Source of the DNA: a virus
Taxonomy: Duplodnaviria; Heunggongvirae; Uroviricota; Caudoviricetes
Direction: 5' to 3' (one strand)
IMG/VR virus record: IMGVR_UViG_2563366824_000004
Length of the DNA stretch: 37,471 bases
Positions 1 through 36,537 of the stretch are shown here, piece after piece. The position numbers and the translations under genes were made by a program. The notes beneath the pieces were generated by a model, which saw only the letters and a list, made by a program, of their open reading frames with translations, searched no databases and was not told the origin of the DNA. Within the stretch, counting starts at the first letter, position 1. The number at the start of each line of letters is the position of its first letter.

Positions 1-1053
1 TTACGGGGTAATGCCAACCGCTGCCGCCACTTTGTCGCCACTTGGCAGCGTTGCCAGAGGATTGAAACGGAGCGCCGTTTCCAGATGATCCGGTGCCAGA
101 TGTGCGTAACGCATAGTCATTTTTATATCGTGGTGTCCGAGAATTTTTTGTAAGGCCAGAATGTTTCCACCCGACATCATGAAGTGCGCCGCAAACGTAT
201 GGCGCAGAACGTGTGTGAGTTGACCGCGAGGGAGCACGATAGACGTTTTTTCCATCACGGATAAAAATTGAAAATAGCAGTCTGTGAAGAAATTGAACCC
301 ATCAAGCGCCATGATCTCTTCGTAAAGCTCTTTACTGATAGGGATGCTTCTGTTTTTCTTCCCCTTCGTTCTTACAAAGGTAATTCGGTATTTGGTCACC
401 TGTGAACGAGTAAGATTTACGGCTTCTCGCCAGCGTGCGCCTGTGCTTAAGCATATCTTAACTACCAGTGCCAGAATTGGGTCCTGACGTTTGCAATCAG
501 CCAGTAATTCAACAATCTGCTCATGGGTAAGCCATGCCATCTCTTTTTCTGCGATGGTGAATTTTCGCATGTTCTCCAGTGGGTTCGGATACGACCATTC
601 GCCCAGGCGGGATAGTTCGCTAAAAACACTACTTAGATAGCTTTGCTCCAGGTTAATGGTGACCGGGCTTGCTCCTTTCTTCCATTTCTCGCTGAAGTAG
701 ATCTCGCCTGTCAGGCGTTTATCTCGATAGTGGGCAAACATTTTAGAGGTGAGATCGGTTGCAAGAGGATTGCCCAGAGCGTCAACCATCAACAGCAATT
801 TGTCATAGACATGCTGCCCAGCTGTCAGAGATTTACCATGTAGTTTGAACCATAGCTCAACCACGTCTTTCAGTGTTCGACGATCCACTGATTCACCCAG
901 CCAGGGCTTTGCTTCGGTTTCTTCCATCGTGTGGCGCTCAAAAGCCAGTGCTTCGCCTTTGGTGACGAATTGTTTACGCACACGACGCCCACTTCGTCCG
1001 GCGGGGTAACATTCGCAAAGCCATTTCCCAGTGGTGAGTTTTCGTACTGCCAT
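1..1053 (-). CDS. int: Tyrosine integrase (P2-like Int)
   Basis: C-terminal catalytic region HVLRHTFAAHF...GHHDIKMTMRYAHL (R..H..R..Y tyrosine recombinase signature). The ORF track extends to 1209, but the family-typical start MAVRKL is the ATG at 1051-1053. Stop codon is at 1-3. Confidence 0.9.
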   Translation of the reverse strand: MAVRKLTTGKWLCECYPAGRSGRRVRKQFVTKGEALAFERHTMEETEAKPWLGESVDRRTLKDVVELWFKLHGKSLTAGQHVYDKLLLMVDALGNPLATDLTSKMFAHYRDKRLTGEIYFSEKWKKGASPVTINLEQSYLSSVFSELSRLGEWSYPNPLENMRKFTIAEKEMAWLTHEQIVELLADCKRQDPILALVVKICLSTGARWREAVNLTRSQVTKYRITFVRTKGKKNRSIPISKELYEEIMALDGFNFFTDCYFQFLSVMEKTSIVLPRGQLTHVLRHTFAAHFMMSGGNILALQKILGHHDIKMTMRYAHLAPDHLETALRFNPLATLPSGDKVAAAVGITP

Positions 1054-1241
1054 AAAAAATGCCCTCCAGTAGAGAGCATTTTCACTGTATGTATAACCAG
1101 TGTCAATGTATGAAATCCTACGACCATACATCTCACTGAAGCCATAATTAAGTTGGCTATTCTTTTTGCTATGTGAGCATGTAACTTTTGCGGTTAACCT
1201 GCGGCTCATTTTTATTTTAGACGCAGATATAAAAGCAAAAG

Positions 1242-1448: not shown

Positions 1449-2105
1449 CTATTTAACATACTTGACTGTTAAACTTATAATTTTACCAATTATTTCAATG
1501 TCTTCTATCTTGCATTCGAAGGCTCTGTTTCCACCCTCGACGAAGATTCTTCCACCGGGTAAACGAGTAATGTCACGGATCGTTATTTCGCCATCAATAC
1601 TTATTACCCATTTACCATCACGTATATCATCAAATTCTTTATCACAAATAAATTCAGAATTGTTATCTGTGATGACAAAAGGTTTTTTAAACGTAGAGGG
1701 TAGAAATCCCTTATCAAAAATATAAAAACCGTCTTTCTGCAATGCTCCATCAGACAATAAATATTTTTCTACTTCTATAGTATTTGTATTTGCTGATGCT
1801 TGCTTTGAACCATGCCCTGTTGTTAGCCAATTAAGCGAGGTGCCCGTTTCAAGGGCGCACTGGATTACCCAATCTGCTGGAAAAATATCACGCATATAGC
1901 GCGTTGCCATGGTGCTCTTAGAAACACCTAAATGATCACATAGAGCCTGACGGGTACCGAACCCATATGCTTCAACTAAACGTTCTATGGCTTTCTTACC
2001 GCCGCTATTGAAATCCACAAGTCCTCCAAAGAAATCCAAAATTCGTTGACAGATTCCAAAAGCGATCTTAAAGTTGAACCAGAAGTGTTCTTTTGGAGCC
2101 TTCAC
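1449..2105 (-). CDS. cI: Immunity repressor CI (186-like)
   Basis: Segment LVEAYGFGTRQALCDHLGVSKSTMATRYMRDIFPADWVIQCALETGTSLNWLTTGHG resembles the 186 CI HTH region as I recall it; located between int and the apl/cII operon, leftward. True start is uncertain. Confidence 0.8.
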   Translation of the reverse strand: MKAPKEHFWFNFKIAFGICQRILDFFGGLVDFNSGGKKAIERLVEAYGFGTRQALCDHLGVSKSTMATRYMRDIFPADWVIQCALETGTSLNWLTTGHGSKQASANTNTIEVEKYLLSDGALQKDGFYIFDKGFLPSTFKKPFVITDNNSEFICDKEFDDIRDGKWVISIDGEITIRDITRLPGGRIFVEGGNRAFECKIEDIEIIGKIISLTVKYVK

Positions 2106-4232: not shown

Positions 4233-5086
4233 GCACCATCCTGAAATGGGCGGGAAATAAAACCGCCATTATGCCAGAACTGAAAAAATACCTTCCTGCT
4301 GGCCCGCGACTGGTTGAACCTTTCGCGGGTTCCTGTGCTGTGATGATGGAAACGGATTATCCCAGCTATCTGGTTGCGGATATTAATCCTGATTTAATCA
4401 ACCTCTATAAAAAGGTTGCCGCTGATTGTGAATCGTTTATATCTCGCGCCAGAGTTTTATTTGAGATCGCAAACAGGGAGGTGGCTTATTACAACATAAG
4501 GCAGGAGTTTAACTGCTCAACTGAAATTACTGATTTCATGAAAGCGGTATATTTCCTGTATCTTAATCGTCACGGTTACCGTGGTTTATGTCGCTATAAC
4601 AAGAGCGGGCATTTCAACATCCCCTACGGTAATTATAAAAATCCGTATTTCCCTGAAAAAGAACTTCGCACATTTGCAGAAAAAGCCCAGCGAGCAACGT
4701 TTATCTGCGCCAGCTTTGATGAAACGCTGGCGATGTTGAAGGCGGGAGATGTGGTGTATTGCGATCCGCCGTATGACGGTACGTTTTCCGGCTATCACAC
4801 TGATGGTTTCACTGAAGATGACCAGTATCACCTGGCATCCGTTCTTGAACATCGGTCATCAGAAGGACATCCAGTCATTGTTTCTAACAGTGACACATCC
4901 CTGATCCGTTCGCTGTATCGCAATTTTACTCACCACTATATCAAGGTAAAACGCAGCATCGGTGTGGCAGCTGGCGAGGGTAAATCAGCAACAGAAATCA
5001 TTGCTGTTTCCGGGCCGCGCTGCTGGATGGGATTTGATTATTCGCGTGGCGTGGATAGTTCTGCCGTGTACGGAGTACGTGCATGA
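4229..5086 (+). CDS. dam: DNA adenine methyltransferase (Dam-like, N6-adenine, probably GATC)
   Basis: N-terminus [23 protein letters not shown]...EPFAGSCAV (AdoMet-binding motif) and catalytic DPPY ([10 protein letters not shown]). ATG with GGAGGTG upstream; the ORF-track start at 4169 is upstream. Confidence 0.9.
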
Positions 5087-7497
5087 GTCATGCCGATATG
5101 AACAACTGCTGCGGCTTTAACGAGGCTGCCGCAGCATTCTCATGGAACAGCCCGAAAAAGGCCATTAACCCTTATCTGGACCCGGCGGAAGTTGCGCCGG
5201 TTTCTACGCTTTCAAACCTGATCACTCTGTACGCTGCCGATAACGAGCAGGAACAGTTGCGCCGCGAGGCACTGAGTGATCAGGTCTGGGAGCGTTATTT
5301 CTTTAATGAATCCCGTGATCCTGTCCAACGCGAAATGGAGCAGGATAAGCTCATTAGCCGGGCAAAGATGGCGCATGAGCAGCAGCGTTTTAATCCGGAC
5401 ATGGTCATTCTGGCCGACGTCAACGCCCAGCCTTCCCATATCAGCAAGCCGCTGATGCAACGTATTGAATATTTCAGCAGCCTGGGCAGGCCAAAGGCTT
5501 ATTCCCGCTATTTGCGTGAGACGATTAAGCCATGTCTGGAACGACTGGAGCATGTACGCGACAGCCAGCTATCTGCATCTTTTCGTTTTATGGCAAGCCA
5601 TGAAGGGCTGGACGGTCTGCTGATCCTGCCTGAAATGAGTCAGGATCAGGTGAAACGCCTGTCTACCCTTGTCGCTGCGCATATGAGCATGTGTCTTGAT
5701 GCCGCTTGTGGTGATTTGTACGCCTCCGATGATGTTAAGCCAGAAGAAATCCGCAAGACATGGGAAAAGGTGGCTGCAGAAACCCTGCGACTGGATGTCA
5801 TACCGCCTGCGTTTGAGCAACTCCGCCGGAAAAGAAACCGCCGCAAACCTGTGCCCTATGAACTCATTCCGGGTTCGCTGGCGCGTATGCTGTGCGCCGA
5901 CTGGTGGTATCGGAAATTATGGAAGATGCGTTGCGAATGGCGGGAAGAGCAGTTGCGTGCTGTCTGCCTGGTCAGCAAAAAAGCATCTCCCTATGTCAGC
6001 TATGAAGCCGTGATGCATAAACGTGAGCAGCGCCGTAAGTCGCTGGAGTTTTTCCGTTCTCATGAACTGGTGAACGAAGACGGCGACACGCTGAACATGG
6101 AGGATGTGGTAAACGCCAGCAGCAGCAACCCGGCGCATCGCCGCAATGAGATGATGGCCTGTGTTAAAGGCCTGGAGCTTATCGCGGAAATGCGTGGTGA
6201 CTGCGCCGTTTTCTACACCATCACCTGTCCGTCACGTTTCCATTCCACGCTAAATAACGGCAGGCCAAACCCGACCTGGACCAACGCGACAGTAAGACAA
6301 AGCAGCGATTATCTGGTCGGCATGTTTGCTGCATTTCGTAAGGCTATGCACAAAGCCGGGTTGCGCTGGTATGGCGTGCGGGTGGCTGAGCCGCATCATG
6401 ACGGCACAGTTCACTGGCACCTGTTGTGTTTCATGCGTAAAAAAGACCGCCGCGCCATTACTGCATTGTTGCGTAAGTTTGCCATCCGTGAAGACCGCGA
6501 GGAGCTGGGCAATAACACGGGGCCACGCTTTAAGTCTGAGCTGATAAACCCGCGCAAAGGAACGCCGACAAGCTACATTGCGAAATATATCAGTAAGAAT
6601 ATTGACGGGCGTGGTCTGGCTGGCGAGATCAGTAAGGAAACGGGTAAATCCCTGCGTGATAACGCTGAATACGTTAATGCCTGGGCGTCTCTGCATCGTG
6701 TTCAGCAATTCCGCTTCTTTGGCATTCCGGGGCGTCAGGCTTACCGTGAACTGCGATTGCTGGCTGGTCAGGCGGCAAGGCAACAGGGTGACAAAAAAGC
6801 AGGTGCGCCGGTACTGGATAACCCGCGCCTTGATGCCATCCTGGCTGCTGCTGATGCTGGTTGTTTTGCCACCTACATCATGAAGCAGGGCGGCGTACTG
6901 GTTTCCCGCAAATATCACCTCATCAGAACCGCTTATGAAATCAACGAAGAGCCAACCGCCTATGGCGATCACGGTATTCGTATTTATGGCATCTGGTCAC
7001 CCATTGCAGAGGGCAAGATCTGCACTCATGCAGTGAAGTGGAAAATGGTTCGTAAGGCCGTTGACGTTCAGGAGGCGGCAGCCGACCAGGGCGCTTGCGC
7101 CCCTTGGACTCGTGGCAATAACTGTCCCCTTGCTGAAAATTTGAACCAACAAGGGAAAGACAAATCAGCTGATGGGGACTCCAGAACGGATATTACCCGT
7201 ATGAATGACAAGGAGTTGCACGATTACCTGCACAGTATGAGCAAAAAAGATCGCCGGGAACTGGCAGCAAGGTTACGCCTGGTGAAACCGAAACGGCGTA
7301 AAGACTACAAACAGCGAATTACAGACCATCAGCGACAGCAGCTTGTCTATGAATTGAAGTCCAGAGGATTTGATGGCAGCGAGAAAGAGGTCGAGTTGCT
7401 CCTTCGCGGTGGCAGTATTCCGTCAGGAGCAGGCCTGCGTATCTTCTATCGGAACCAGCGTCTGCAGGAGGATGATAAGTGGCGGAACATGTATTAA
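5083..7497 (+). CDS. A: Replication initiation protein gpA (rolling-circle endonuclease)
   Basis: 804 aa; HxH metal motif (TVHWHLL) and the tyrosine pair region [13 protein letters not shown] typical of P2 A-family initiators; located after the early operon. Confidence 0.9.
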
Positions 7498-7849: not shown

Positions 7850-8083
7850 ATGCGCATTGAAATAATGATCGATAAAGAGCAGAAGATTAGCCAGTCTATC
7901 CTGGACGCCCTTGAATCCGAGCTTTACCGCAATCTGCGCCCCCTGTATCCAAAAACGGTAATTCGTATCCGCAAAGGTAGCTCTAACGGTGTGGAACTGA
8001 CCGGACTGCAACTGGACGAAGAAAGAAAACAAGTGATGAAAATTATGCAGAAGGTGTGGGAAGACGACAGCTGGCTGCATTAG
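7850..8083 (+). CDS. DinI-family protein (77 aa)
   Basis: MRIEIMIDKEQKISQSILDALESELYRNLRPLYP...EERKQVMKIMQKVWEDDSWLH aligns along its length with E. coli DinI as I recall it (MRIEVTIAK...AIDALAGEL...KEDKQRISEILQETWESADDWF). GAGGTG RBS. Confidence 0.8.
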   Translation: MRIEIMIDKEQKISQSILDALESELYRNLRPLYPKTVIRIRKGSSNGVELTGLQLDEERKQVMKIMQKVWEDDSWLH

Positions 8084-8211
8084 AGAACGTTGCGGATGAT
8101 AAAACTAGCTTTTACCATCTGCAAGGCTGAACAACGATTGTAGCGAGGTGTTAGGTGGTTCAAAAGTAAAGCGGTTATTTTGCCCGTAAAAGTGAACCAC
8201 CTGTATCTTGA

Positions 8212-8952
8212 TCAGTTTTCTTTGAATTTTTCACTTAATCGTTTCGTCAATACTTCGACAGATTCTTTGCGACCGGAGAACAAGTCATTGACGACGTACT
8301 CCATAATCTCAAAAGCATCCTCAATGTCTTTGACTTTTACTTCATCGTAGGTATGGCTTCCGGCATTTCCTAAAAATTTAATTGCCATAAGAGGTCTTGA
8401 AAACGATCCGTATAATTCAGGTAGCATCCCTAAACGGTGGTGTAGAGTTATGCGTTTGCCATTATCATTACGTTCAGCTACATCCATAGCGGTTAGCATT
8501 CTTTCAACTGAAATTCGAATTAGGTTTGCTGCTGCGCCAGGCTGTATTAGGAAAATGGAAAATGAGGCTTCAAGCGGTTCGGTAATTTCTTCTGGGCATT
8601 TTTCAGGTATTTCGAAAGGATGCAGTGATGGGTAAAAGGTGAAAGGTCTGTGCCATTGATAGTACTCAATATCATTTCTTTCTTCATCCCAACCTTGTTC
8701 CCATCCACTCTTACCAGTACAGGCCACAACTTCACCACATTGCATTCTTGAACAGCGGGCCATGCAACTGAAAATAGATGAATCCATTTCTAGTTCAAAC
8801 CAATCTTCACTGCGGAATTTTCGGGTATCATGTGTGTCATACGAGACGAAACTTTCTTTAATGATCTGTAGGGTTTTCTGATTGCAGTTAGGGCAGGGCC
8901 ACTCAACCTGCATATCGTGGAAAAACGCACCAGAGAGCTTGTGCACAGTCAT
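8212..8952 (-). CDS. Hypothetical cargo protein (246 aa) with N-terminal Cys-rich putative Zn-ribbon; candidate phage-exclusion gene
   Basis: Leftward AT-rich ORF at the position occupied by tin/old in P2. CPNC...C...C..C cysteine clusters; C-terminal alpha-helical region with a GNAGSH motif. Confidence 0.7.
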   Translation of the reverse strand: MTVHKLSGAFFHDMQVEWPCPNCNQKTLQIIKESFVSYDTHDTRKFRSEDWFELEMDSSIFSCMARCSRMQCGEVVACTGKSGWEQGWDEERNDIEYYQWHRPFTFYPSLHPFEIPEKCPEEITEPLEASFSIFLIQPGAAANLIRISVERMLTAMDVAERNDNGKRITLHHRLGMLPELYGSFSRPLMAIKFLGNAGSHTYDEVKVKDIEDAFEIMEYVVNDLFSGRKESVEVLTKRLSEKFKEN

Positions 8953-9152
8953 TCTTTGTGTTCCTCATTTTTATGATTGGTAGGGATTGTATCTTCATAC
9001 ACGATTACAGTTGCATTAAAGATAAGCCATAGCAAGCTACTGGAAAAGAGACGAAACAGTTGGGCATATCAGATGTTTTTTCTTAAGGTAAGTTGTTGTG
9101 CATGCCTATACTGCATGAGATTGCATGATCGTTTGAGGATCGTTATTGCTAA

Positions 9153-9177
9153 GGCCCACCAGAACTGGCGGGCTTTT
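9153..9177 (+). terminator. Candidate intrinsic terminator (imperfect GC stem followed by TTTT)
   Basis: GCCCACCAG-AA-CTGGCGGGC followed by TTTTG; would terminate rightward transcription just before the candidate cos site. Confidence 0.35.
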
Positions 9178-9222
9178 GCGTAGAGCATGCAGGTGCATGA
9201 AAACAACTACATAAAGCGGGCA

Positions 9223-9241
9223 GGCGTGGCGGGGATACGAG
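9223..9241. other. Candidate cos (cohesive-end) site
   Basis: GGCGTGGCGGGGATACGAG: the first 13 nt match the 19-nt cohesive end of 186/P2 as I remember it (GGCG(T/A)GGCGGGGAAAGCA..); located between A and Q as in P2-family genomes. Recalled from memory, not verified. Confidence 0.35.
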
Positions 9242-9356
9242 CGCGCGCTGGTTAATTTATATGAGAACAATCTCATATAAATATTCGAGACAAGTTGCAA
9301 AAAAACGCGGAGCATTATATGTTTAGTAGCAAATTCTGAACGTTGAGAATATTAAA

Positions 9357-10625
9357 ATGGAAATTTTTGATACGAATGATATCTTTGGGCTCTCAAGAGA
9401 TTTGCCACTTAATTACATTGAAAGACCTGATGTTGATTTCAAACTTAAACAGGAATTACAAGCAAAGAAACATATTGTTATTTACGGCAGTTCAAAGCAG
9501 GGTAAGACTTGCGTAAGAAAACACTGTATTAATTCTGATGATTATATTTTGGTGCAGTGTTCGAATCGTTCTGATGTATCTGAATTGAATGCAAGTATTT
9601 TAAAAAGAGCTGGATTCGAAATAACTCAGTCTACCAAGAAAGGTATTACGGGGAAAAATAAAATAATCGCATCAATAAAAACTTCTATTTTGGGTTTTGT
9701 GGCGAGTGCCGGAGGCGAGATCGAAGATACGAAATCTCATGAACAAGTAACCGCGCCTTTAGAAATTGATGTTGATGATGTTAATGATGTTATAGCGGCT
9801 TTAAAATCTATAAATTTCAAGAAGATTATCGTTCTTGAGGATTTTCATTATATGCCTTTCGAAACTCAAAGAGATTTTTCGATCGCATTAAAAGCCTTTC
9901 ATGAAACATCAAGCATTATTTTTGTAATTGTTGGAGTTTGGCTAGAAGATAATCGGCTCATTGTTTACAATGGTGACTTAACTGGCAGGATTATTTCTGT
10001 TAACGCAGACAAATGGCAAGATTCTGAACTGGAGATGGCAATTGATAAAGGAGGTTTACTCCTTAACATTGATTTTGATCCAACTTTCAAAGCAGATGTA
10101 GTAACACACTGTCTCAATAGTATTTATTTAGTGCAAGAAGCATGTAGGCGTGCGTGTATTGAATGCGGAATATCAGAGACTCAGCAAACAAAAAGAACTA
10201 TTGGAGCTGGTTTGGATGGAAAGGATATCATTGCAAAAATTGTTAATGACCAATCGGCTCGTTACAATTCTTTCCTTATTAATTTTTCAGATGGATTTCA
10301 AGATACTGAACTTCAAATGCATAAATGGATTTTATATCCTGTCCTTTCATCAACCATTAGTGAACTTGAATTAGGTTTGAAATTTAAAGATATAAGGGCA
10401 ATATTACAAAGTGTACATCCAAGAGGGGAGAAGTTAAACCTGGGTAATGTTACTCAGTCGTTACAATCAACGGCGTCTTTGCAAATAAAGAAAAATATAA
10501 TGCCTATTATTTTGGATTATGACCAAACAAATAGGAAACTGAATGTTGTTGATAAAGGCTTCCTAATATGGTTGCAACATCAAGATATCAAAGATCTAAA
10601 GGATGATTTGGAGTTGCCAAATTAA
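9357..10625 (+). CDS. P-loop NTPase (422 aa), hypothetical cargo; candidate defence or abortive-infection ATPase
   Basis: Walker A GSSKQGKT (residues 44-51) and Walker B-like IIVLEDFH; C-terminal roughly 200 aa without a motif I recognise; strongly AT-rich; lies between the candidate cos and portal gene Q. Confidence 0.75.
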   Translation: MEIFDTNDIFGLSRDLPLNYIERPDVDFKLKQELQAKKHIVIYGSSKQGKTCVRKHCINSDDYILVQCSNRSDVSELNASILKRAGFEITQSTKKGITGKNKIIASIKTSILGFVASAGGEIEDTKSHEQVTAPLEIDVDDVNDVIAALKSINFKKIIVLEDFHYMPFETQRDFSIALKAFHETSSIIFVIVGVWLEDNRLIVYNGDLTGRIISVNADKWQDSELEMAIDKGGLLLNIDFDPTFKADVVTHCLNSIYLVQEACRRACIECGISETQQTKRTIGAGLDGKDIIAKIVNDQSARYNSFLINFSDGFQDTELQMHKWILYPVLSSTISELELGLKFKDIRAILQSVHPRGEKLNLGNVTQSLQSTASLQIKKNIMPIILDYDQTNRKLNVVDKGFLIWLQHQDIKDLKDDLELPN

Positions 10626-10642
10626 TTCATGTCTTTATTATA

Positions 10643-10673
10643 GATAATGGCGCCTATGTAGGCGCCCATTATC
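10643..10673. terminator. Hairpin between the convergent NTPase and Q genes (possible bidirectional terminator)
   Basis: GATAATGGCGCC-TATGTA-GGCGCCCATTATC near-perfect inverted repeat immediately after both stop codons. Confidence 0.4.
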
Positions 10674-11705
10674 TTAGAATTCAAGTGTATACGGTTTGAA
10701 TTGGATTATATTCTCATTAGACCAACTATTTAATCCTTTTATTCTTTCCTGTAATGGTATTAGCTCATTCCTCACAAACACACAGCTAGCCTTTTCCACA
10801 TCCCCAAATCCTCCAACATTATTAGGTATAATCCCCATCATTTGCGGTGGTACGCGGTGCGCAGCCATCATGTCATCGCGGCTGACATTTTTGATATTCA
10901 GAAACTCATCCTTCGCCGCAACTTCTGACAGAGGAATGATCTGAAGCCCATCCTTTTTGCCATTAGGTGAGTACATAAACAGGTTGCGGAAATTGCCTGG
11001 ACCTTTGGCGCTTTTCATCGCGTTGCGGAGGTTGTTCACATCCTCCTGGTTCTGCGCCGCATCGGTCATGTACATGATGAAGCCTGCATGACTGCCGTTA
11101 ATGTAATACTTGCGGCGGAACAGCGTGGCGGACTCGTTGAGCAAAGCGGATGGGATGGCAGAAAGATAGCCGGGCAGGCCGTAGATCTCCTGATTAATAT
11201 CCGGTTCCATCAGATGAAAAATGCTGCCTTTCGTGAACTGATACGGCTGGGTTGTCATACCGTATTGCATAAACCAGTAGGTATCCAGGTCTAATCCGCG
11301 TCGGGTGTATTTTGCAAGCGCAGGCTCAAGAGCGATAACTTCACCGAATCGGTTCGTGCGTTTCTCCAGGTAGGCGTTACCAAATACCAGATAGTCCTGC
11401 ACAAAACGCGAAAAAGCCTGCTGGCTGAGCAGCGGATGAGGGATATAGGTACTGGTCAGAATGTTGCACTTTACTGCAATCGGGGAACTGTGATGCACGG
11501 CGGCGCGGAAGGTGCGCGCCAGTCCGTCAAAGCTGACGGGCGGCTCATACCAACGGTCCATCTGTACGCATTCCACATAATCCAGCAGTTCTCGGCGGTC
11601 CAGAACAGGAACGGGATCGCCGAAGCTGAATGCTTCGGCTGTAGTTTGACTTTTAAGCTGGATCTGTTTCGTCGCCGCAGCGCGGTTCTTCTTACTCTTT
11701 CCCAT
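10674..11705 (-). CDS. Q: Portal protein gpQ
   Basis: 343-aa leftward ORF directly upstream-adjacent to the terminase ATPase; its ATG overlaps the P stop (ATGA); P2 Q-P arrangement. Confidence 0.85.
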   Translation of the reverse strand: MGKSKKNRAAATKQIQLKSQTTAEAFSFGDPVPVLDRRELLDYVECVQMDRWYEPPVSFDGLARTFRAAVHHSSPIAVKCNILTSTYIPHPLLSQQAFSRFVQDYLVFGNAYLEKRTNRFGEVIALEPALAKYTRRGLDLDTYWFMQYGMTTQPYQFTKGSIFHLMEPDINQEIYGLPGYLSAIPSALLNESATLFRRKYYINGSHAGFIMYMTDAAQNQEDVNNLRNAMKSAKGPGNFRNLFMYSPNGKKDGLQIIPLSEVAAKDEFLNIKNVSRDDMMAAHRVPPQMMGIIPNNVGGFGDVEKASCVFVRNELIPLQERIKGLNSWSNENIIQFKPYTLEF

Positions 11706-13471
11706 CAAAAAATCTCCACAATATTGCTGGTATTGGCGGATTCGCCCTGCAGCGGTTCGTTAAACAGTGCGTGCATCGTTGCCCAGGCCAGATCGGCGTG
11801 GCTGGCTTCTTCGCTGCGGCTGGCTTCATAGGTCGGGCGGTTGCCACTGGCGGTGGTGGCGCGACGGATTGCCATAAAGGACTGCGCTATGTCGGTGTGT
11901 CCGGCGTCAAACTCCAGACGGCGGTGGCTGATAATGTCGTAGGCCTTGAGTACCAGGGCGTTTTTAACGTTGGGGTTGTAGACAAACTCCCGGACGGCAG
12001 GAAAAAACGCTTTCACGTTCTCGTAAACCCCGTGACCAACGCCGGTTGAGTCGATACCGATATAGGTCACGTTGTACTGTTCGGTCAGTTTTTTGATGGC
12101 GTCAGCCTGGGCGCGGAAGTCCATTCCGCGCCACTGGTGACGCTCAAGAATGCGGAACTTACCGCCCGGCACGGCTGGCGGCGCCACCACCACGCATCCG
12201 GCGCTGTCGCCGTTCTGCGTACCTTTCGCCGGGTCATATCCGATCCACACTTCGCGCCAGCCAAACGGGCGCAGGGCCAGTGCATGAAAGTCGGTCCAGA
12301 CTTCCCAACTGTCCACCATGCACGCCTGCAGCTCGCTGAGTGGGAACACAGACGCGAGATCGTCCACGAACTCACACATCAGCAGGTTCTGGTATTCGTC
12401 CGGGCTGTACTCCATGCGCAACTGGTCGAGGTCGAACAGGTTACAGCCGCCGCGCACCGCATCTTCCACAGTGACTATCTGGCGGTACTGCCCGTCTGCG
12501 CACAGCAGGCCGGGGGCCAGATTGCTGTGGGACAGGTCGATGTCCACCTTATCGGCTTTGTTGCGCCCTCGGTTGAACAGCGCACCGGACCAGAACGGAT
12601 AAGCACTGTGTGTCAGGCTGGATGGCGTGGAAAAATAGGTTTGTCGCCATTTTTTGTGAATAGCCATACCGGAAGCCACTTTGCGCAGCTCCTGGAATTT
12701 CGGTATCCAGAAATATTCATCCAGATACAGGTTGCCGTGGTAACTCTGGGCCGTGCGGGCATTGGTGCCGAGGAAGTACAGCGTGGCCCCGTTAGGAAGC
12801 ACCATCGGATCGCCTTTCAGCTCCACCTCCACTTCTTTGGCGAAGTCGATGATGTACTGCTTAAAGACGTGGGCCTGAGCCTTGCTGGCGGAAAGGAAAA
12901 TCTGGTTACGCCCGGTTAGCAGGGCGTCAATCAGGGCTTCACGGGCAAAATAGAAGGTCGCGCCGATCTGGCGTGACTTCAGCAGGTTGCGGATGCGGTT
13001 GGTTTTTCCGGCTTCCCACCAGTGGCGCTGGTAGTTGAACATGGAGGAATGGAAGATTTCTTCCAACTTCTCAATCTGTTCATCGGTGAAAACGTTCTTT
13101 TCCGGCTGACGGCGCGGGCCTTTGTTGCGGTTGGCGACGTTAGGGTTTAAGTCGGCTTCGTTGCCGCCATTGTTAAACTTGCCGATCCGCGCATGGCGCT
13201 CCGACTGGCGCGCCAGCAGGTCAATCTCTTTGAAATCTTTCCCTTCTTTGTGCTCCTTCATAATGAGCTGGCAGTAGCGTGCGGCGGTGGTGAGCTGCAT
13301 CTGATCCAGCGGCCCATAGTCACCCCACTTGTCGCGTTTTTTCCAGCTGTGAACGGTTGCAACTTTCTCGCCCAGCATTTCAGCAATGCGGGCTACGCGG
13401 TATCCCTGAAAGTACAGCAGCATGGCCTGCCGACGGGGATCGAGATCTGCGGGTGTCAGTGTGGTGTTCAT
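11705..13471 (-). CDS. P: Terminase large (ATPase) subunit gpP
   Basis: 588 aa, leftward, divergent from the O-N-M-L operon, as for P2 gpP. Confidence 0.85.
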   Translation of the reverse strand: MNTTLTPADLDPRRQAMLLYFQGYRVARIAEMLGEKVATVHSWKKRDKWGDYGPLDQMQLTTAARYCQLIMKEHKEGKDFKEIDLLARQSERHARIGKFNNGGNEADLNPNVANRNKGPRRQPEKNVFTDEQIEKLEEIFHSSMFNYQRHWWEAGKTNRIRNLLKSRQIGATFYFAREALIDALLTGRNQIFLSASKAQAHVFKQYIIDFAKEVEVELKGDPMVLPNGATLYFLGTNARTAQSYHGNLYLDEYFWIPKFQELRKVASGMAIHKKWRQTYFSTPSSLTHSAYPFWSGALFNRGRNKADKVDIDLSHSNLAPGLLCADGQYRQIVTVEDAVRGGCNLFDLDQLRMEYSPDEYQNLLMCEFVDDLASVFPLSELQACMVDSWEVWTDFHALALRPFGWREVWIGYDPAKGTQNGDSAGCVVVAPPAVPGGKFRILERHQWRGMDFRAQADAIKKLTEQYNVTYIGIDSTGVGHGVYENVKAFFPAVREFVYNPNVKNALVLKAYDIISHRRLEFDAGHTDIAQSFMAIRRATTASGNRPTYEASRSEEASHADLAWATMHALFNEPLQGESANTSNIVEIF

Positions 13472-19458: not shown

Positions 19459-21327
19459 TTAATTTTCAATGCTTTGCTTTAATTTATCTATTGCGGGAGT
19501 TAAACAATCATTTATGAGCTCATCGATTTGTAATGATAATATATTTGAGTTTATTTGAGTTTTCTTTTCAATTAGCTTTCTAATTAGCTCGCGGTGGAAA
19601 AAACGCTCTGCAGAAAGCTCTTTTAGATAAGGGGTGTTGTTGTATCGGTTTTTTATAGCATAGCCAAAGAAATGCATCTCGGTTGAGTCTATCAGTATTT
19701 TTGTTAGTTGTTCAGCATCACCAAAATAAAGAACTGGTTTGTCGTGAAATGAATAAATATCTTTGTTGTTGAAATTTAGATGTGCGTAATATTCATGATT
19801 TCCGGACTGTATTAATTTGAATATCTTTTGAGCGTCTTGGCTAAGTTGATATGCAATTAATACATTTTTCTTTTGTTCTATGTAATTAACAAGCTCCTTG
19901 AATTCCCTAGTTTCTTTGCAATGAAAAGTTAATCCTCTCCATCGCTCATCCTTAATGTCTTCATCAAAAATTTCATAACTAGTTTGTATCATTCCTTTTT
20001 CTGCTAAAATATCAACAGCAGAGTGGGCTAAGTTTGTTAAATAGTGTTCGTTGATGGGTTTTATATGTTCTCTGGATAAATGAAGTAATAATCCGTAAAT
20101 ATGCTTAAGAACATGCTCGTTCAATATTTCAAAATTAATAAGCGTATGAAGTGTTGAATTGTAATTTTCCTCAAATTCTGTGTATTTTAATCGATCATAA
20201 TTCCAAAGTTGTGTCCATGGCTCAATTGTTTTATTAGAAACACTGACGAATGTTATTAATTCAGATATTATTTTTTCTTGATTGATTTTCTGATTGTCAA
20301 TTATATCGATCCAGGTATCCTCGTCTAAGATTAAATTTGACAAATAAGTTGTACCATATTTTTCAATTAAATTGGATGTGTATTTATTATCATCATCTAT
20401 TTTATATGTTAACAAGTCAGAAACGGTTCGTTTTATTTTATTAGATTCAAAATAGAGTATAAAATGTAATTGATATAATCTGAGTGTCAAATCTGAATTT
20501 TGCTGAAACTGTGCTGGTAATATTTTGAATATTCTTTCAAAAAAAGAAATTTGCCTTTCAATTAATCTAATGTTATTACACTCTGAAAGAGTGAGTAAGC
20601 TCTCAATATTTTTTATGTTCAGAATGGTGTTGAGTTCGCTAGTTATATTTTTTAGAAAATATTCGTAGGCGTGAGAATGTTGAGGTTGATATTTGAAAGT
20701 TATACCTATAACTTTTTCTTTTGCATCTAAATAAATACCATCATGATTTTTATTTCTAGCGGGGTTTAATATTTCTCTCTCATTGGCGATAATCAAAACC
20801 TTGCATTCTTTTTCTTCAACGAAATTATTTATATAACCAAATATAGAATTCCAATCTAATTCGCAGCGTTCAAGATCATCAAATATCAATATGGTGTTTT
20901 CTGGTGAGTAGTAAAAGTCTTTAATGCTTACGTTGGGTAGTTCTGGGGAGCCCTCTACACTTGTAACGAATGAATCACTTAAATCAATCTTAAGTGTGCC
21001 TTTAATTAGTGCCTTAGTTAGTGTGCCAGCAAGCAACATGCCTTTAGATGAAAGGAAGGGATGCATTTGCTTGAAAATTATTTCGTCAATTTGTTCGGTG
21101 GATTTTATTCCATATAATGAGATCATTAATGGCTTAACTTTCCCTTTTAGTGATTCTTCATTCATTAATTTACGGACAAACCATGTTTTCCCGCTTCCCC
21201 ATTCGCCGTCAATCATTACTGCGAAATTAGGGGATTTTTCAAGATCCACTAAATAATTAAGATATGAGGTTAGCTCTTCATTGTAATTCATTGGATTGTA
21301 AGACCCTTCATACAATTTGAAAATCAC
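19459..21327 (-). CDS. KAP-family P-loop NTPase (622 aa), cargo gene between S and V
   Basis: Hallmark KAP Walker A DGEWGSGKTWF and Walker B ILIFDDLERC; strongly AT-rich; opposite strand to the flanking late genes. Start may be the ATG at 21291 rather than the GTG at 21327. Confidence 0.75.
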   Translation of the reverse strand: MIFKLYEGSYNPMNYNEELTSYLNYLVDLEKSPNFAVMIDGEWGSGKTWFVRKLMNEESLKGKVKPLMISLYGIKSTEQIDEIIFKQMHPFLSSKGMLLAGTLTKALIKGTLKIDLSDSFVTSVEGSPELPNVSIKDFYYSPENTILIFDDLERCELDWNSIFGYINNFVEEKECKVLIIANEREILNPARNKNHDGIYLDAKEKVIGITFKYQPQHSHAYEYFLKNITSELNTILNIKNIESLLTLSECNNIRLIERQISFFERIFKILPAQFQQNSDLTLRLYQLHFILYFESNKIKRTVSDLLTYKIDDDNKYTSNLIEKYGTTYLSNLILDEDTWIDIIDNQKINQEKIISELITFVSVSNKTIEPWTQLWNYDRLKYTEFEENYNSTLHTLINFEILNEHVLKHIYGLLLHLSREHIKPINEHYLTNLAHSAVDILAEKGMIQTSYEIFDEDIKDERWRGLTFHCKETREFKELVNYIEQKKNVLIAYQLSQDAQKIFKLIQSGNHEYYAHLNFNNKDIYSFHDKPVLYFGDAEQLTKILIDSTEMHFFGYAIKNRYNNTPYLKELSAERFFHRELIRKLIEKKTQINSNILSLQIDELINDCLTPAIDKLKQSIEN

Positions 21328-34851: not shown

Positions 34852-36537
34852 TTATCCTAATCCTGGCCATACCATGACGATGATTGTCCCTGCCAGCGTC
34901 AGCAGGACGTTGGCGATTGCGTAGGTGCCCGCATAGCCCAGCGCCGGGATGTTACTGCGAGCTGTATCACTGATGATCTCCATTGCCGGCGCGCAGGTGC
35001 GTGCGCCCATCATTGCGCCGAACAACAGTGCGCGGTTCATTCGCAATACATAAGCACCGAACAAGAAACAGATAACCACGGGCACCAGACTGACAATCAA
35101 TCCGGCAATCAACATTTGACCGCCAATTGCGCCCAGGCCGTTATTAATACCGCTACCGGCGCTCAGACCAACGCCTGCCATAAACACCATCAAGCCGAAC
35201 TCCTTCACCATGCTTAATGCACCCTGCGGAATGTAACCGAAGGTCGGGTGGTTCGCGCGCATAAAGCCCAGCATGATTCCGGCGAATAACAACCCGGCAG
35301 CGTTCCCCATGCCGAAACTGAATGTGCTGAACTGGAAGGTGATCATCCCGATCATCAGCCCAATAACAAAGAAGGCGCAGAATGCCAGCAAGTCAGTGAC
35401 CTGGCTGTGAATCGAGATAAAGCCGATGCGATCGGCGATGGTTTTTACGCGACGGGCATCGCCGCTGACTTGTAAAACGTCACCTTTGTTAAGCACGACG
35501 TTGTCATCAATCGGCATCTCAATCTGGCTACGAATGACGCGGTTAAGGAAGCAACCGTGATCGGTCAACTTCAGTTGTGCCAAGCGTTTGCCAACAGCGT
35601 TATGGTTTTTAACGACCACTTCTTCAGTGACGATACGCATGTCGAGAAGGTCACGATCGAAAACTTCTTTGCCATTACGGAAACTGGGATCGAGTCGGGC
35701 GTGGGCGTCAGGATAGCCTACCAACGCTATTTCATCGCCCATTTGTAGTACGGCATCACCGTCTGGATTTGCCAGAATCCCGTTACGCCGAATACGTTCA
35801 ATGTAACAGCCAGTTTGTCGATAAATACCCAGTTCACGCAGATTTTTGCCGTCGGTCCAGGCCACCAGCTCCGGGCCGACGCGGTAGGCCCGGATCACCG
35901 GTAAATAAACCTTACGGTTGGCATCAGTGTCCAGGCCACGTTCGCGGGCGATTTGCTGGGCGCTGGTCTGTAAGTCCTGATGCTGCAATTTCGGCAAGTA
36001 ACGCGCACCAACAATCAAACTCACCAGACCGATTAAATAGGTTAAGGCATACCCGAGGCTCAGATTATCCAGTGCCAGTGAGAGCTGCCTGCTTTCCATG
36101 CCGGAATGACGCAGTGTATCGCCAGCACCGACCAGAACCGGTGTTGACGTCATAGAGCCTGCTAACATACCGGCCGTCAGGCCAATATCCCAGCCAAACA
36201 GCTTACCTAACCCTAAGGCGATCACCAGCGCACTGCCAACCATCACCAGTGCTAACATTAGGTAATTTTTCCCATCGCGAAAAAAAATGGAAAAAAAGTT
36301 CGGTCCGGCTTCGACCCCGACGCAGAAAATAAACAGCATAAAGCCAAGATTAAGCGCGTCGGTGTTAATGCTGAAATGTTGTTGGCCTAATAACAGCGAT
36401 ACGACTAAAACGCCAATGGAATTACCCAGTTGGATCGAACCAAGTCGTAACTTTCCGAGACATAGCCCAAGCGCGAGGACCACAAATAATAACAGAATGT
36501 AATTCCCATTTAACAATTCGGCGACGTTTATATTCAC
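34852..36537 (-). CDS. ybjL: Putative transport protein YbjL (AAE family, 561 aa)
   Basis: Polytopic membrane N- and C-terminal domains around a central soluble region; sequence and the ybjL-ybjM-grxA neighbourhood recognised as the E. coli locus. Confidence 0.85.

Follow-up and report, generated by a model that had tools for sequence, protein, structure and literature searches.

The 37,471-nt stretch of viral DNA considered here (IMG/VR record IMGVR_UViG_2563366824_000004; hereafter the window) is a P2-like prophage of the 186/Fels-2 type. Between its replication gene A (gpA) and its portal gene Q, a location that matching genomes annotate alike, lie two divergent cargo genes encoding proteins of 246 and 422 amino acids (aa), the first a predicted RNase with a HEPN fold and the second a P-loop ATPase. 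Both open reading frames (ORFs) are real and 404 bp (8953–9356) separate them; the same two coding sequences are present in the RefSeq annotation of E. coli APEC IMT5155, where the region 8100–10700 is 100% identical. A first-pass annotation of the sequence had offered two alternatives for these genes, either unrelated cargo, one gene per virion end, or a functionally linked pair put together by circularisation of the phage genome. Our data favor the former and not the latter: the two genes are very probably separate, self-contained cargo cassettes that occupy two adjacent bays of the P2 gpA–gpQ hotspot.

The boundaries of the two cassettes are sharply defined. Homology breakpoints fall exactly at both edges of a 156-bp cos core (9094–9249) that 1248 of 5426 complete E. 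coli genomes contain. At the left edge, similarity to loci carrying only the 422-aa gene ends at 8081–8154 and returns at 9095–9099. At the right edge, loci carrying only the 246-aa gene are 99–100% identical to the window up to 9246–9250 and unrelated beyond, with similarity coming back at 10695–10756. These breakpoints at the cos edges delimit a left cassette of about 8155–9093 and a right cassette of about 9250–10694, and beyond the universal cos core the two have no DNA in common. The left cassette is 99.7–99.9% identical across loci with different right-hand cargos. In the 422-aa-only loci 9250–10625 is 99.8–100% identical, but the cos core is just 85–93% identical. More generally, closely related prophages have flanks that are 95–100% identical and cargos that are unrelated.

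The co-occurrence analysis that the first-pass annotation had called for was carried out, and the genes do not always travel together; each has many unrelated neighbors and is sometimes alone, which for distribution and neighbors is the refuting outcome that the first-pass annotation had named. Of the complete E. coli genomes, 29 carry the 246-aa gene and 11 the 422-aa gene; six carry both, leaving 23/29 and 5/11 carriers without the other gene. Five of the six pair-bearing genomes share the whole prophage (98–99% coverage), and the sixth, EcPF20, has a prophage at 85% coverage and 96.9% identity. At 99–100% identity the left cassette pairs with at least five other right-hand cargos, and opposite copies of 99.7–99.9% identity we find PD-T7-1, a TIR protein, a DitB-like protein or a three-gene set (partners were read in three of the 23 E. 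coli genomes with the 246-aa gene only). The wider 246-aa family faces at least 17 different right-hand contents in IMG/VR loci, including AbiU, a PARIS-like AriA, PDC-M03A, an HNH set (as in Salmonella phage SEN8) and another PD-T7-4-like gene, and in two loci (L074 and L077) an empty right slot of 176 bp. The right cassette, at 99.8–100% identity, has six or more other left-hand partners: a 111-aa gene, a 71- plus 280-aa pair, a PDC-S42-like set or a three-gene set, and also a gene pair that resembles DprA and a phosphoribosyltransferase by eye, for which no family match was obtained. A KAP NTPase partner of the right cassette is given in Table S5A of Rousset 2022 (PMC9122126). Cassettes with ATPase homologues at 77% and 91% amino-acid identity adjoin a nearly empty left slot (L029 and L031).

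The same holds over greater evolutionary distances. Of 37 loci from IMG/VR and GTDB with members of the 246-aa family (41–100% identity), three have an ATPase homologue within 7 kb, and 35 of 38 IMG/VR ATPase loci have no 246-aa homologue. Every co-occurrence of the pair in these loci is a 100%-identical copy of the locus described here, and diverged homologues are never together. Two features expected of an obligate pair are thus missing, in that the families do not co-occur across genomes and their relative arrangement is not conserved. In P2-like prophages of Serratia, cos has a 76%-identical ATPase on its gpA side and HicAB on its Q side; in another locus (L032) the ATPase and Q share a strand; and in P. 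aeruginosa and S. stutzeri the homologue is solitary, outside phages, just after nrdAB. SEN8, an isolated phage, carries the 246-aa gene but lacks an ATPase homologue. The families also differ in size and range: 96 clusters at 90% identity, nearly all from Enterobacterales, for the 246-aa family, against more than 2300 clusters at 90% identity (2115 at 50%) across phyla for the ATPase. A recurrent neighbor of the ATPase was sought across 53 loci and none was seen except P2 core genes.

A number of these loci merit brief description in their own right. In four Salmonella-like loci (L063–L065 and L071) compared with 7850–9249 of the window, the left cassette is 94.8% identical, the DinI-like gene 83.7% and the cos core 90%, which suggests, from the sequence comparison, that the left cassette moved between the P2-like phages of Salmonella and those of E. 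coli after the divergence of their backbones. In the P. aeruginosa and S. stutzeri loci (L004–L010, gene at 6001–7281) the ATPase homologues are 59–61% identical and follow nrdAB directly on the same strand, with a terminator-like hairpin about 20–25 nt ahead of the start codon; what lies downstream varies, one species having pyocin S genes there and the other an Mrr-like nuclease. In non-P2 prophages (L047–L050) ATPase relatives of 28–30% identity come directly after a CI/LexA-like repressor gene on the same strand, the repressor ORF being about 215 aa long, ending 38–46 nt before the ATPase homologue and identified by eye. The position after a CI-like repressor is where lysogen-expressed exclusion genes, for example lambda rexAB, classically occur.

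Base composition had been used to argue for joint acquisition, on the grounds that the two genes are equally AT-rich. This does not hold. Both have a lower GC content than the prophage (50%), yet they differ from each other, the 246-aa gene having 41.6% GC (37.7% at third codon positions, GC3) and the 422-aa gene 34.1% (GC3 26.7%); z = 3.3 and 2.9. As the GC content differs, the argument for joint acquisition falls with it.

Table 1. Features of the prophage and of its gpA–Q region (window coordinates)
Feature	Coordinates	Strand	Remarks
Integrase	1–1209		Prophage backbone
CI repressor	1449–2105		Prophage backbone
Replication gene A (gpA)	5083–7497		Left flank of the variable region
DinI-like gene	7850–8083	+	Pfam DinI, 2.5e-22; conserved left anchor, kept in loci with other cargos
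Left cargo cassette	8155–9093	-	246-aa gene plus 141 bp upstream, reaching the cos core
246-aa gene	8212–8952	-	Cys-rich N-terminal domain and C-terminal DUF4145/HEPN
cos core, 156 bp	9094–9249		Common to P2-like phages; both cassettes stop at its edges
Imperfect G+C-rich hairpin	9151–9176 (approx.)	+	Inside the cos core
Predicted 19-nt cohesive end	9223–9241	+	Virion DNA left end would start at 9223
Right cargo cassette	9250–10694	+	Palindrome-bearing upstream region, 422-aa gene and bidirectional terminator
Perfect 12-nt inverted repeat	9255–9282		Part of the right cassette
422-aa gene	9357–10625	+	P-loop ATPase, PADLOC candidate PDC-S59; ORC/Cdc6, clamp-loader or STAND-like fold
Bidirectional terminator hairpin	10642–10674		Between the 422-aa gene and portal gene Q
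Portal gene Q	10674–11708	-	Conserved right anchor; phage portal protein in matching genomes; conserved across loci by tblastn
Terminase gene P	11705–13471	-	

The spacer between the genes does hold a cos site of the P2/186 type, as was first proposed. Its 19 bases at 9223–9241, GGCGTGGCGGGGATACGAG, are identical to bases 1–19 of SEN8, annotated there as a putative cos, and match P2 cosL, the left cohesive end, at 14 of 19 positions; the SEN8 record terminates at the base corresponding to 9222 of the window, and the P2 cos region is collinear with 9112–9250. Two blocks are common to the P2 cos region at an identical 79-nt spacing, one at 9112–9126 (TGCATGAGATTGCAT, 15/15 matches to P2) and the other at 9191–9250, surrounding the cut site, and conservation with P2 spans about 130 bp leftward from the cut and only about 27 bp rightward. 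From homology to annotated phage ends we predict the cut at 9222/9223. The virion DNA would then carry the 422-aa gene at its left end and the 246-aa gene at its right end, both transcribed inward.

The other spacer elements fared less uniformly. A palindrome is present and perfect (arms of 12 nt at 9255–9266 and 9271–9282, 4-nt loop, -11.9 kcal/mol, z -4.2). It is 100% conserved in loci with an identical right cassette and degraded or absent upstream of ATPase homologues at 95% and 91% amino-acid identity, so that its function is doubtful, and the idea that it serves as an operator of the right cassette was dropped. The hairpin described as terminator-like also exists (-19.3 kcal/mol, z -2.4), but the terminator scan made no call there, and we reject it as a terminator given that just four T's follow the stem and that it sits in cos-conserved sequence. 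The hairpin between the 422-aa gene and Q is terminator-like on both strands (-19.8 and -20.3 kcal/mol, z -4.3 and -5.5). An Rfam search of the region gave no family match.

It is instructive to consider what this anatomy would mean for the phage. The left bay is bounded by DinI/gpA and the cos core, and the right bay by that core and the 3' end of gene Q. As both are bounded by conserved sequence, homologous recombination in these anchors could swap one cargo and leave the other untouched. Transcription of both genes leads away from cos, so that neither unit spans the cut and each would be intact in linear, circular and integrated DNA. Little weight attaches to the suggestion that the genes are brought together only by circularisation, as they are already contiguous in the integrated prophage, and with neither unit crossing the cut, circularisation is not needed to assemble anything. 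Both genes would be expressed from the lysogen, as are P2 old–tin from the same left bay.

The 246-aa protein carries a C-terminal DUF4145 domain (Pfam, 4.9e-13) with a HEPN fold, and its structure model is confident, with a predicted local distance difference test (pLDDT) score of 90.5. The closest parallel is RAZR/PD-T7-4 (Vassallo et al. 2022; Zhang et al. 2026, PMC13017515); RAZR is a single-gene abortive-infection RNase, which forms a 24-mer around portals and other ring-shaped phage proteins before cleaving RNA. RAZR/PD-T7-4 defends alone, which provides a precedent for single-gene action (PMC13017515). Alignment of the 246-aa family with RAZR/PD-T7-4 fragments gave an hhalign probability of 94.8% and an E-value of 5e-8 over residues 96–218 (linker plus HEPN), a comparison that rests on partial proteins recovered with a 70-aa fragment. 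The PADLOC match to PD-T7-4 is weak (1.6e-5, 22.5 bits) and the profile match to the RAZR structure, PDB 9y9c, at an E-value of 0.19 is not significant alone; 9y9c was absent from the results of both structure searches, and a single-sequence search of both cargo proteins against PDB sequences returned nothing usable. In design the proteins are alike: both are small single proteins with an N-terminal cysteine-rich region, here a putative zinc-binding one, a C-terminal DUF4145/HEPN domain and a common motif, [R/K]-x2-G-N-x3-H, with its histidine conserved.

They differ in length (246 aa against about 211–219 aa), in the larger N-terminal domain here and in the motif itself, where RAZR has R146 and H154 (R-x7-H) and this protein K192 and H200. 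H200 is conserved in the family, within the motif KFLGNAGSH, and C20, C23, C67 and C72 are invariant; the N-terminal domain does not align with that of RAZR, the alignment starting at residue 96. From these comparisons the 246-aa protein appears to be a distant relative with RAZR's design and not RAZR proper, and its trigger probably differs. DS-38 of DefensePredictor, which also combines a zinc finger with HEPN, was considered as an identity and rejected, being a different protein (WP_001313577, from a 1101-nt gene). By analogy with RAZR, the protein is probably a stand-alone abortive-infection RNase of that type: the cysteine-rich N-terminal sensor would recognize a phage protein assembly, the protein would oligomerize and the HEPN domain would cleave RNA. 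As a separate observation, one IMG/VR contig (L069) has zinc-ribbon plus DUF4145 genes flanking cos on both sides. The left one is a member of the 246-aa family and the right one (L069_R0) a different, 244-aa PD-T7-4-like protein (1.6e-7) that also has a lysine in the [R/K]-x2-G-N-x3-H motif.

The 422-aa protein matches the PADLOC family PDC-S59 over nearly its full length (4.8e-72, 241 bits; residues 5–411 of 422 against profile positions 4–405 of 428), a family that PADLOC-DB v2 files under a single-gene ('S') candidate label. Walker A (GSSKQGKT) and Walker B (VLEDFH) are invariant in the family. The AlphaFold2 model (pLDDT 84.9) places a beta-hairpin and a disordered insertion (87–134) between the two Walker motifs, and helices and a beta-hairpin in the C-terminal part (residues 321–417), a candidate for a winged-helix domain. 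Foldseek returned RFC subunits (1.5e-8) and Cdc6/Orc1 (template-modelling score 0.44–0.49, the best), with a probability of 1.0 to both. Weak Pfam matches link the protein to AAA_22 and TniB, and its relatives to nSTAND families. It thus resembles AAA+ proteins of the ORC/Cdc6, clamp-loader and STAND kinds in its P-loop core, helical lid and C-terminal helical/beta-hairpin domain, but at a sequence identity of only about 10–12%. Unlike defence STAND proteins of the Avs/NLR type it has neither sensor repeats nor an effector domain, and it is not the replication initiator of this phage, that role belonging to gpA. Members from Enterobacteria, Pseudomonas and Burkholderia are 55–64% identical to one another, and almost all relatives are stand-alone proteins of about 415–450 aa with no added domain.

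A fused effector was sought among these relatives, and the search yielded rare nSTAND3 tandems and one sub-threshold match to an alpha/beta-hydrolase only. In the tandems, P0351 (791 aa) and P0371 (860 aa), an extra N-terminal nSTAND3 NTPase precedes the PDC-S59 module; they could be real fusions or gene-calling artefacts. nSTAND3 domains occur in conflict systems. We found no paper mentioning PDC-S59 in the literature searched, and the family is a computational candidate, a name without a mechanism; in the accessible portions of the DefensePredictor supplements neither cargo protein was found. The ATPase is probably a stand-alone, lysogen-expressed nucleotide-dependent switch of the ORC/Cdc6 or STAND type. 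Our best guess is that it would oligomerize in an ATP-dependent manner on phage nucleic acid or protein and so block replication or growth.

Several observations weigh against the reading of two self-contained defence cassettes and should be considered together with its rivals. RAZR's catalytic arginine is not kept, an invariant lysine (K192) taking its place in 40/40 aligned family members. A consensus promoter scan of the spacer found none on either side of cos. The ATPase has no recognizable effector domain, which makes the need for a partner arguable. No experimental work on either protein was found in the literature searched, and defence and functional independence are thus what we infer. 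Lastly, the pair is seen more often than chance would have it, with 6 pairs observed against 0.25 expected over about 1291 cos-bearing loci (p = 3e-8), and p = 0.007 once the five genomes with the same prophage are collapsed. However, with the genes only 400 bp apart, such an excess is predicted by common descent and linkage; it shows no functional link, although weak co-selection remains compatible with it. That the HEPN protein and the ATPase cooperate as one two-component system, for example as sensor and effector arranged divergently around cos, is to us very improbable indeed, even though they are adjacent and divergent here and in six E. coli genomes, co-occur above chance in the naive count, and set an ATPase lacking an effector domain beside a predicted nuclease. 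The ATPase is missing within 7 kb from 34 of the 37 loci of the 246-aa family and the 246-aa homologue from 35 of the 38 ATPase loci, both genes are known beside an empty partner slot, and SEN8 carries the 246-aa gene alone. The ATPase may moreover sit across cos or outside phages altogether, the family sizes are more than 20-fold apart, and cassettes that end at the cos edges would share no regulatory DNA beyond the cos core.

A milder version, in which the cassettes are independent and their combination is co-selected for complementary target ranges or mutual backup, we regard as improbable, if less so. The enrichment that survives lineage collapse and the presence of the pair in at least two prophage backbones (five near-identical ones plus EcPF20) are in its favor, as is the report of Rousset 2022 (PMC9122126) that many P2 hotspots hold more than one system; but joint inheritance of a 2.6-kb block, its genes 400 bp apart, is expected without selection, 23/29 and 5/11 carriers have a different partner, and diverged homologues never co-occur. 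A somewhat stronger rival, still unlikely in our view, is that the 422-aa ATPase is not anti-phage and acts in DNA transactions or regulation of the phage or host, merely being carried in the hotspot. Its lack of an effector domain, its nearest folds among clamp-loader subunits and Cdc6/Orc1, its unusual conservation between Enterobacteria, Pseudomonas and Burkholderia and its fixed place after nrdAB in two Pseudomonadaceae would all fit, and no experimental validation of PDC-S59 was found in the literature searched. Set against this are the full-length match to a PADLOC defence candidate, the known defence genes that otherwise fill the bays it occupies, the rexAB-like position behind a CI-like repressor gene in other prophages, the variable pyocin and Mrr-like neighbors in Pseudomonas, the rare fusions to nSTAND3 NTPase domains with their link to conflict systems, and its absence from most P2-like phages, to which it is therefore not essential. 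On balance we retain the reading of two separate cassettes, both genes of which are probably anti-phage. The anatomy, the boundaries of the cassettes, their independent distribution and the assignment of fold and family are what the data show, whereas defence activity, triggers and biochemical outputs we infer.

In P2-like phages the gpA–gpQ region by cos has been described as a defence hotspot that takes 1,650 arrangements in E. coli and often contains more than one system (PMC9122126; PMC13586616). The locus described here is one more, ordinary arrangement of this hotspot: it lies between genes A and Q next to cos, and its cargo is AT-rich, variable and defence-like. The left cassette lies in the same bay and on the same strand as P2 old–tin, whose transcript starts about 150 nt from the cut. 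The right bay of P2, by comparison, is empty, its Q gene ending 186 nt from the left end. The consulted sections of the hotspot papers (Rousset et al. 2022; Moura de Sousa et al. 2026) treat one hotspot, whereas here we see two bays with many-to-many pairing. A two-bay split with breakpoints at the cos edges was not encountered in those sections and is a small but useful refinement. One possible fuller picture, advanced tentatively, is that the cos core acts as a fixed homology pivot between two independently exchanging bays, giving each virion end its own inward-pointing, self-contained defence cassette, with an effector-less PDC-S59 ATPase as that of the right bay.

Elsewhere in the prophage, a gene for a 622-aa KAP-family P-loop NTPase (19459–21327, - strand) is a third AT-rich cargo gene (27–31% GC) that lies amid the tail genes and matches PADLOC candidate PDC-S49 (1e-134). 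Its site is presumably the second hotspot of P2, the one within the tail genes. The product of an ORF at 34852–36537 (- strand) is a 561-aa transporter that contains Asp-Al_Ex and TrkA_C domains. This ORF is likely a host gene, and the right boundary of the prophage is therefore probably near 34.3–34.8 kb.

As the bays end exactly at the cos edges, a gene to the left of cos and one to its right should not be counted as parts of one 'system', and these boundaries help to delimit candidate systems when mining P2-like prophages. The 246-aa protein, with a different sensor domain and a lysine in the catalytic motif, is a natural comparison for trigger recognition by RAZR-type RNases. PDC-S59 emerges as a large family of stand-alone ATPases, highly conserved and located where lysogen-expressed cargo genes are typically found. 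If it is antiviral, this family of more than 2000 clusters across phyla would represent a new single-protein mode of defence.

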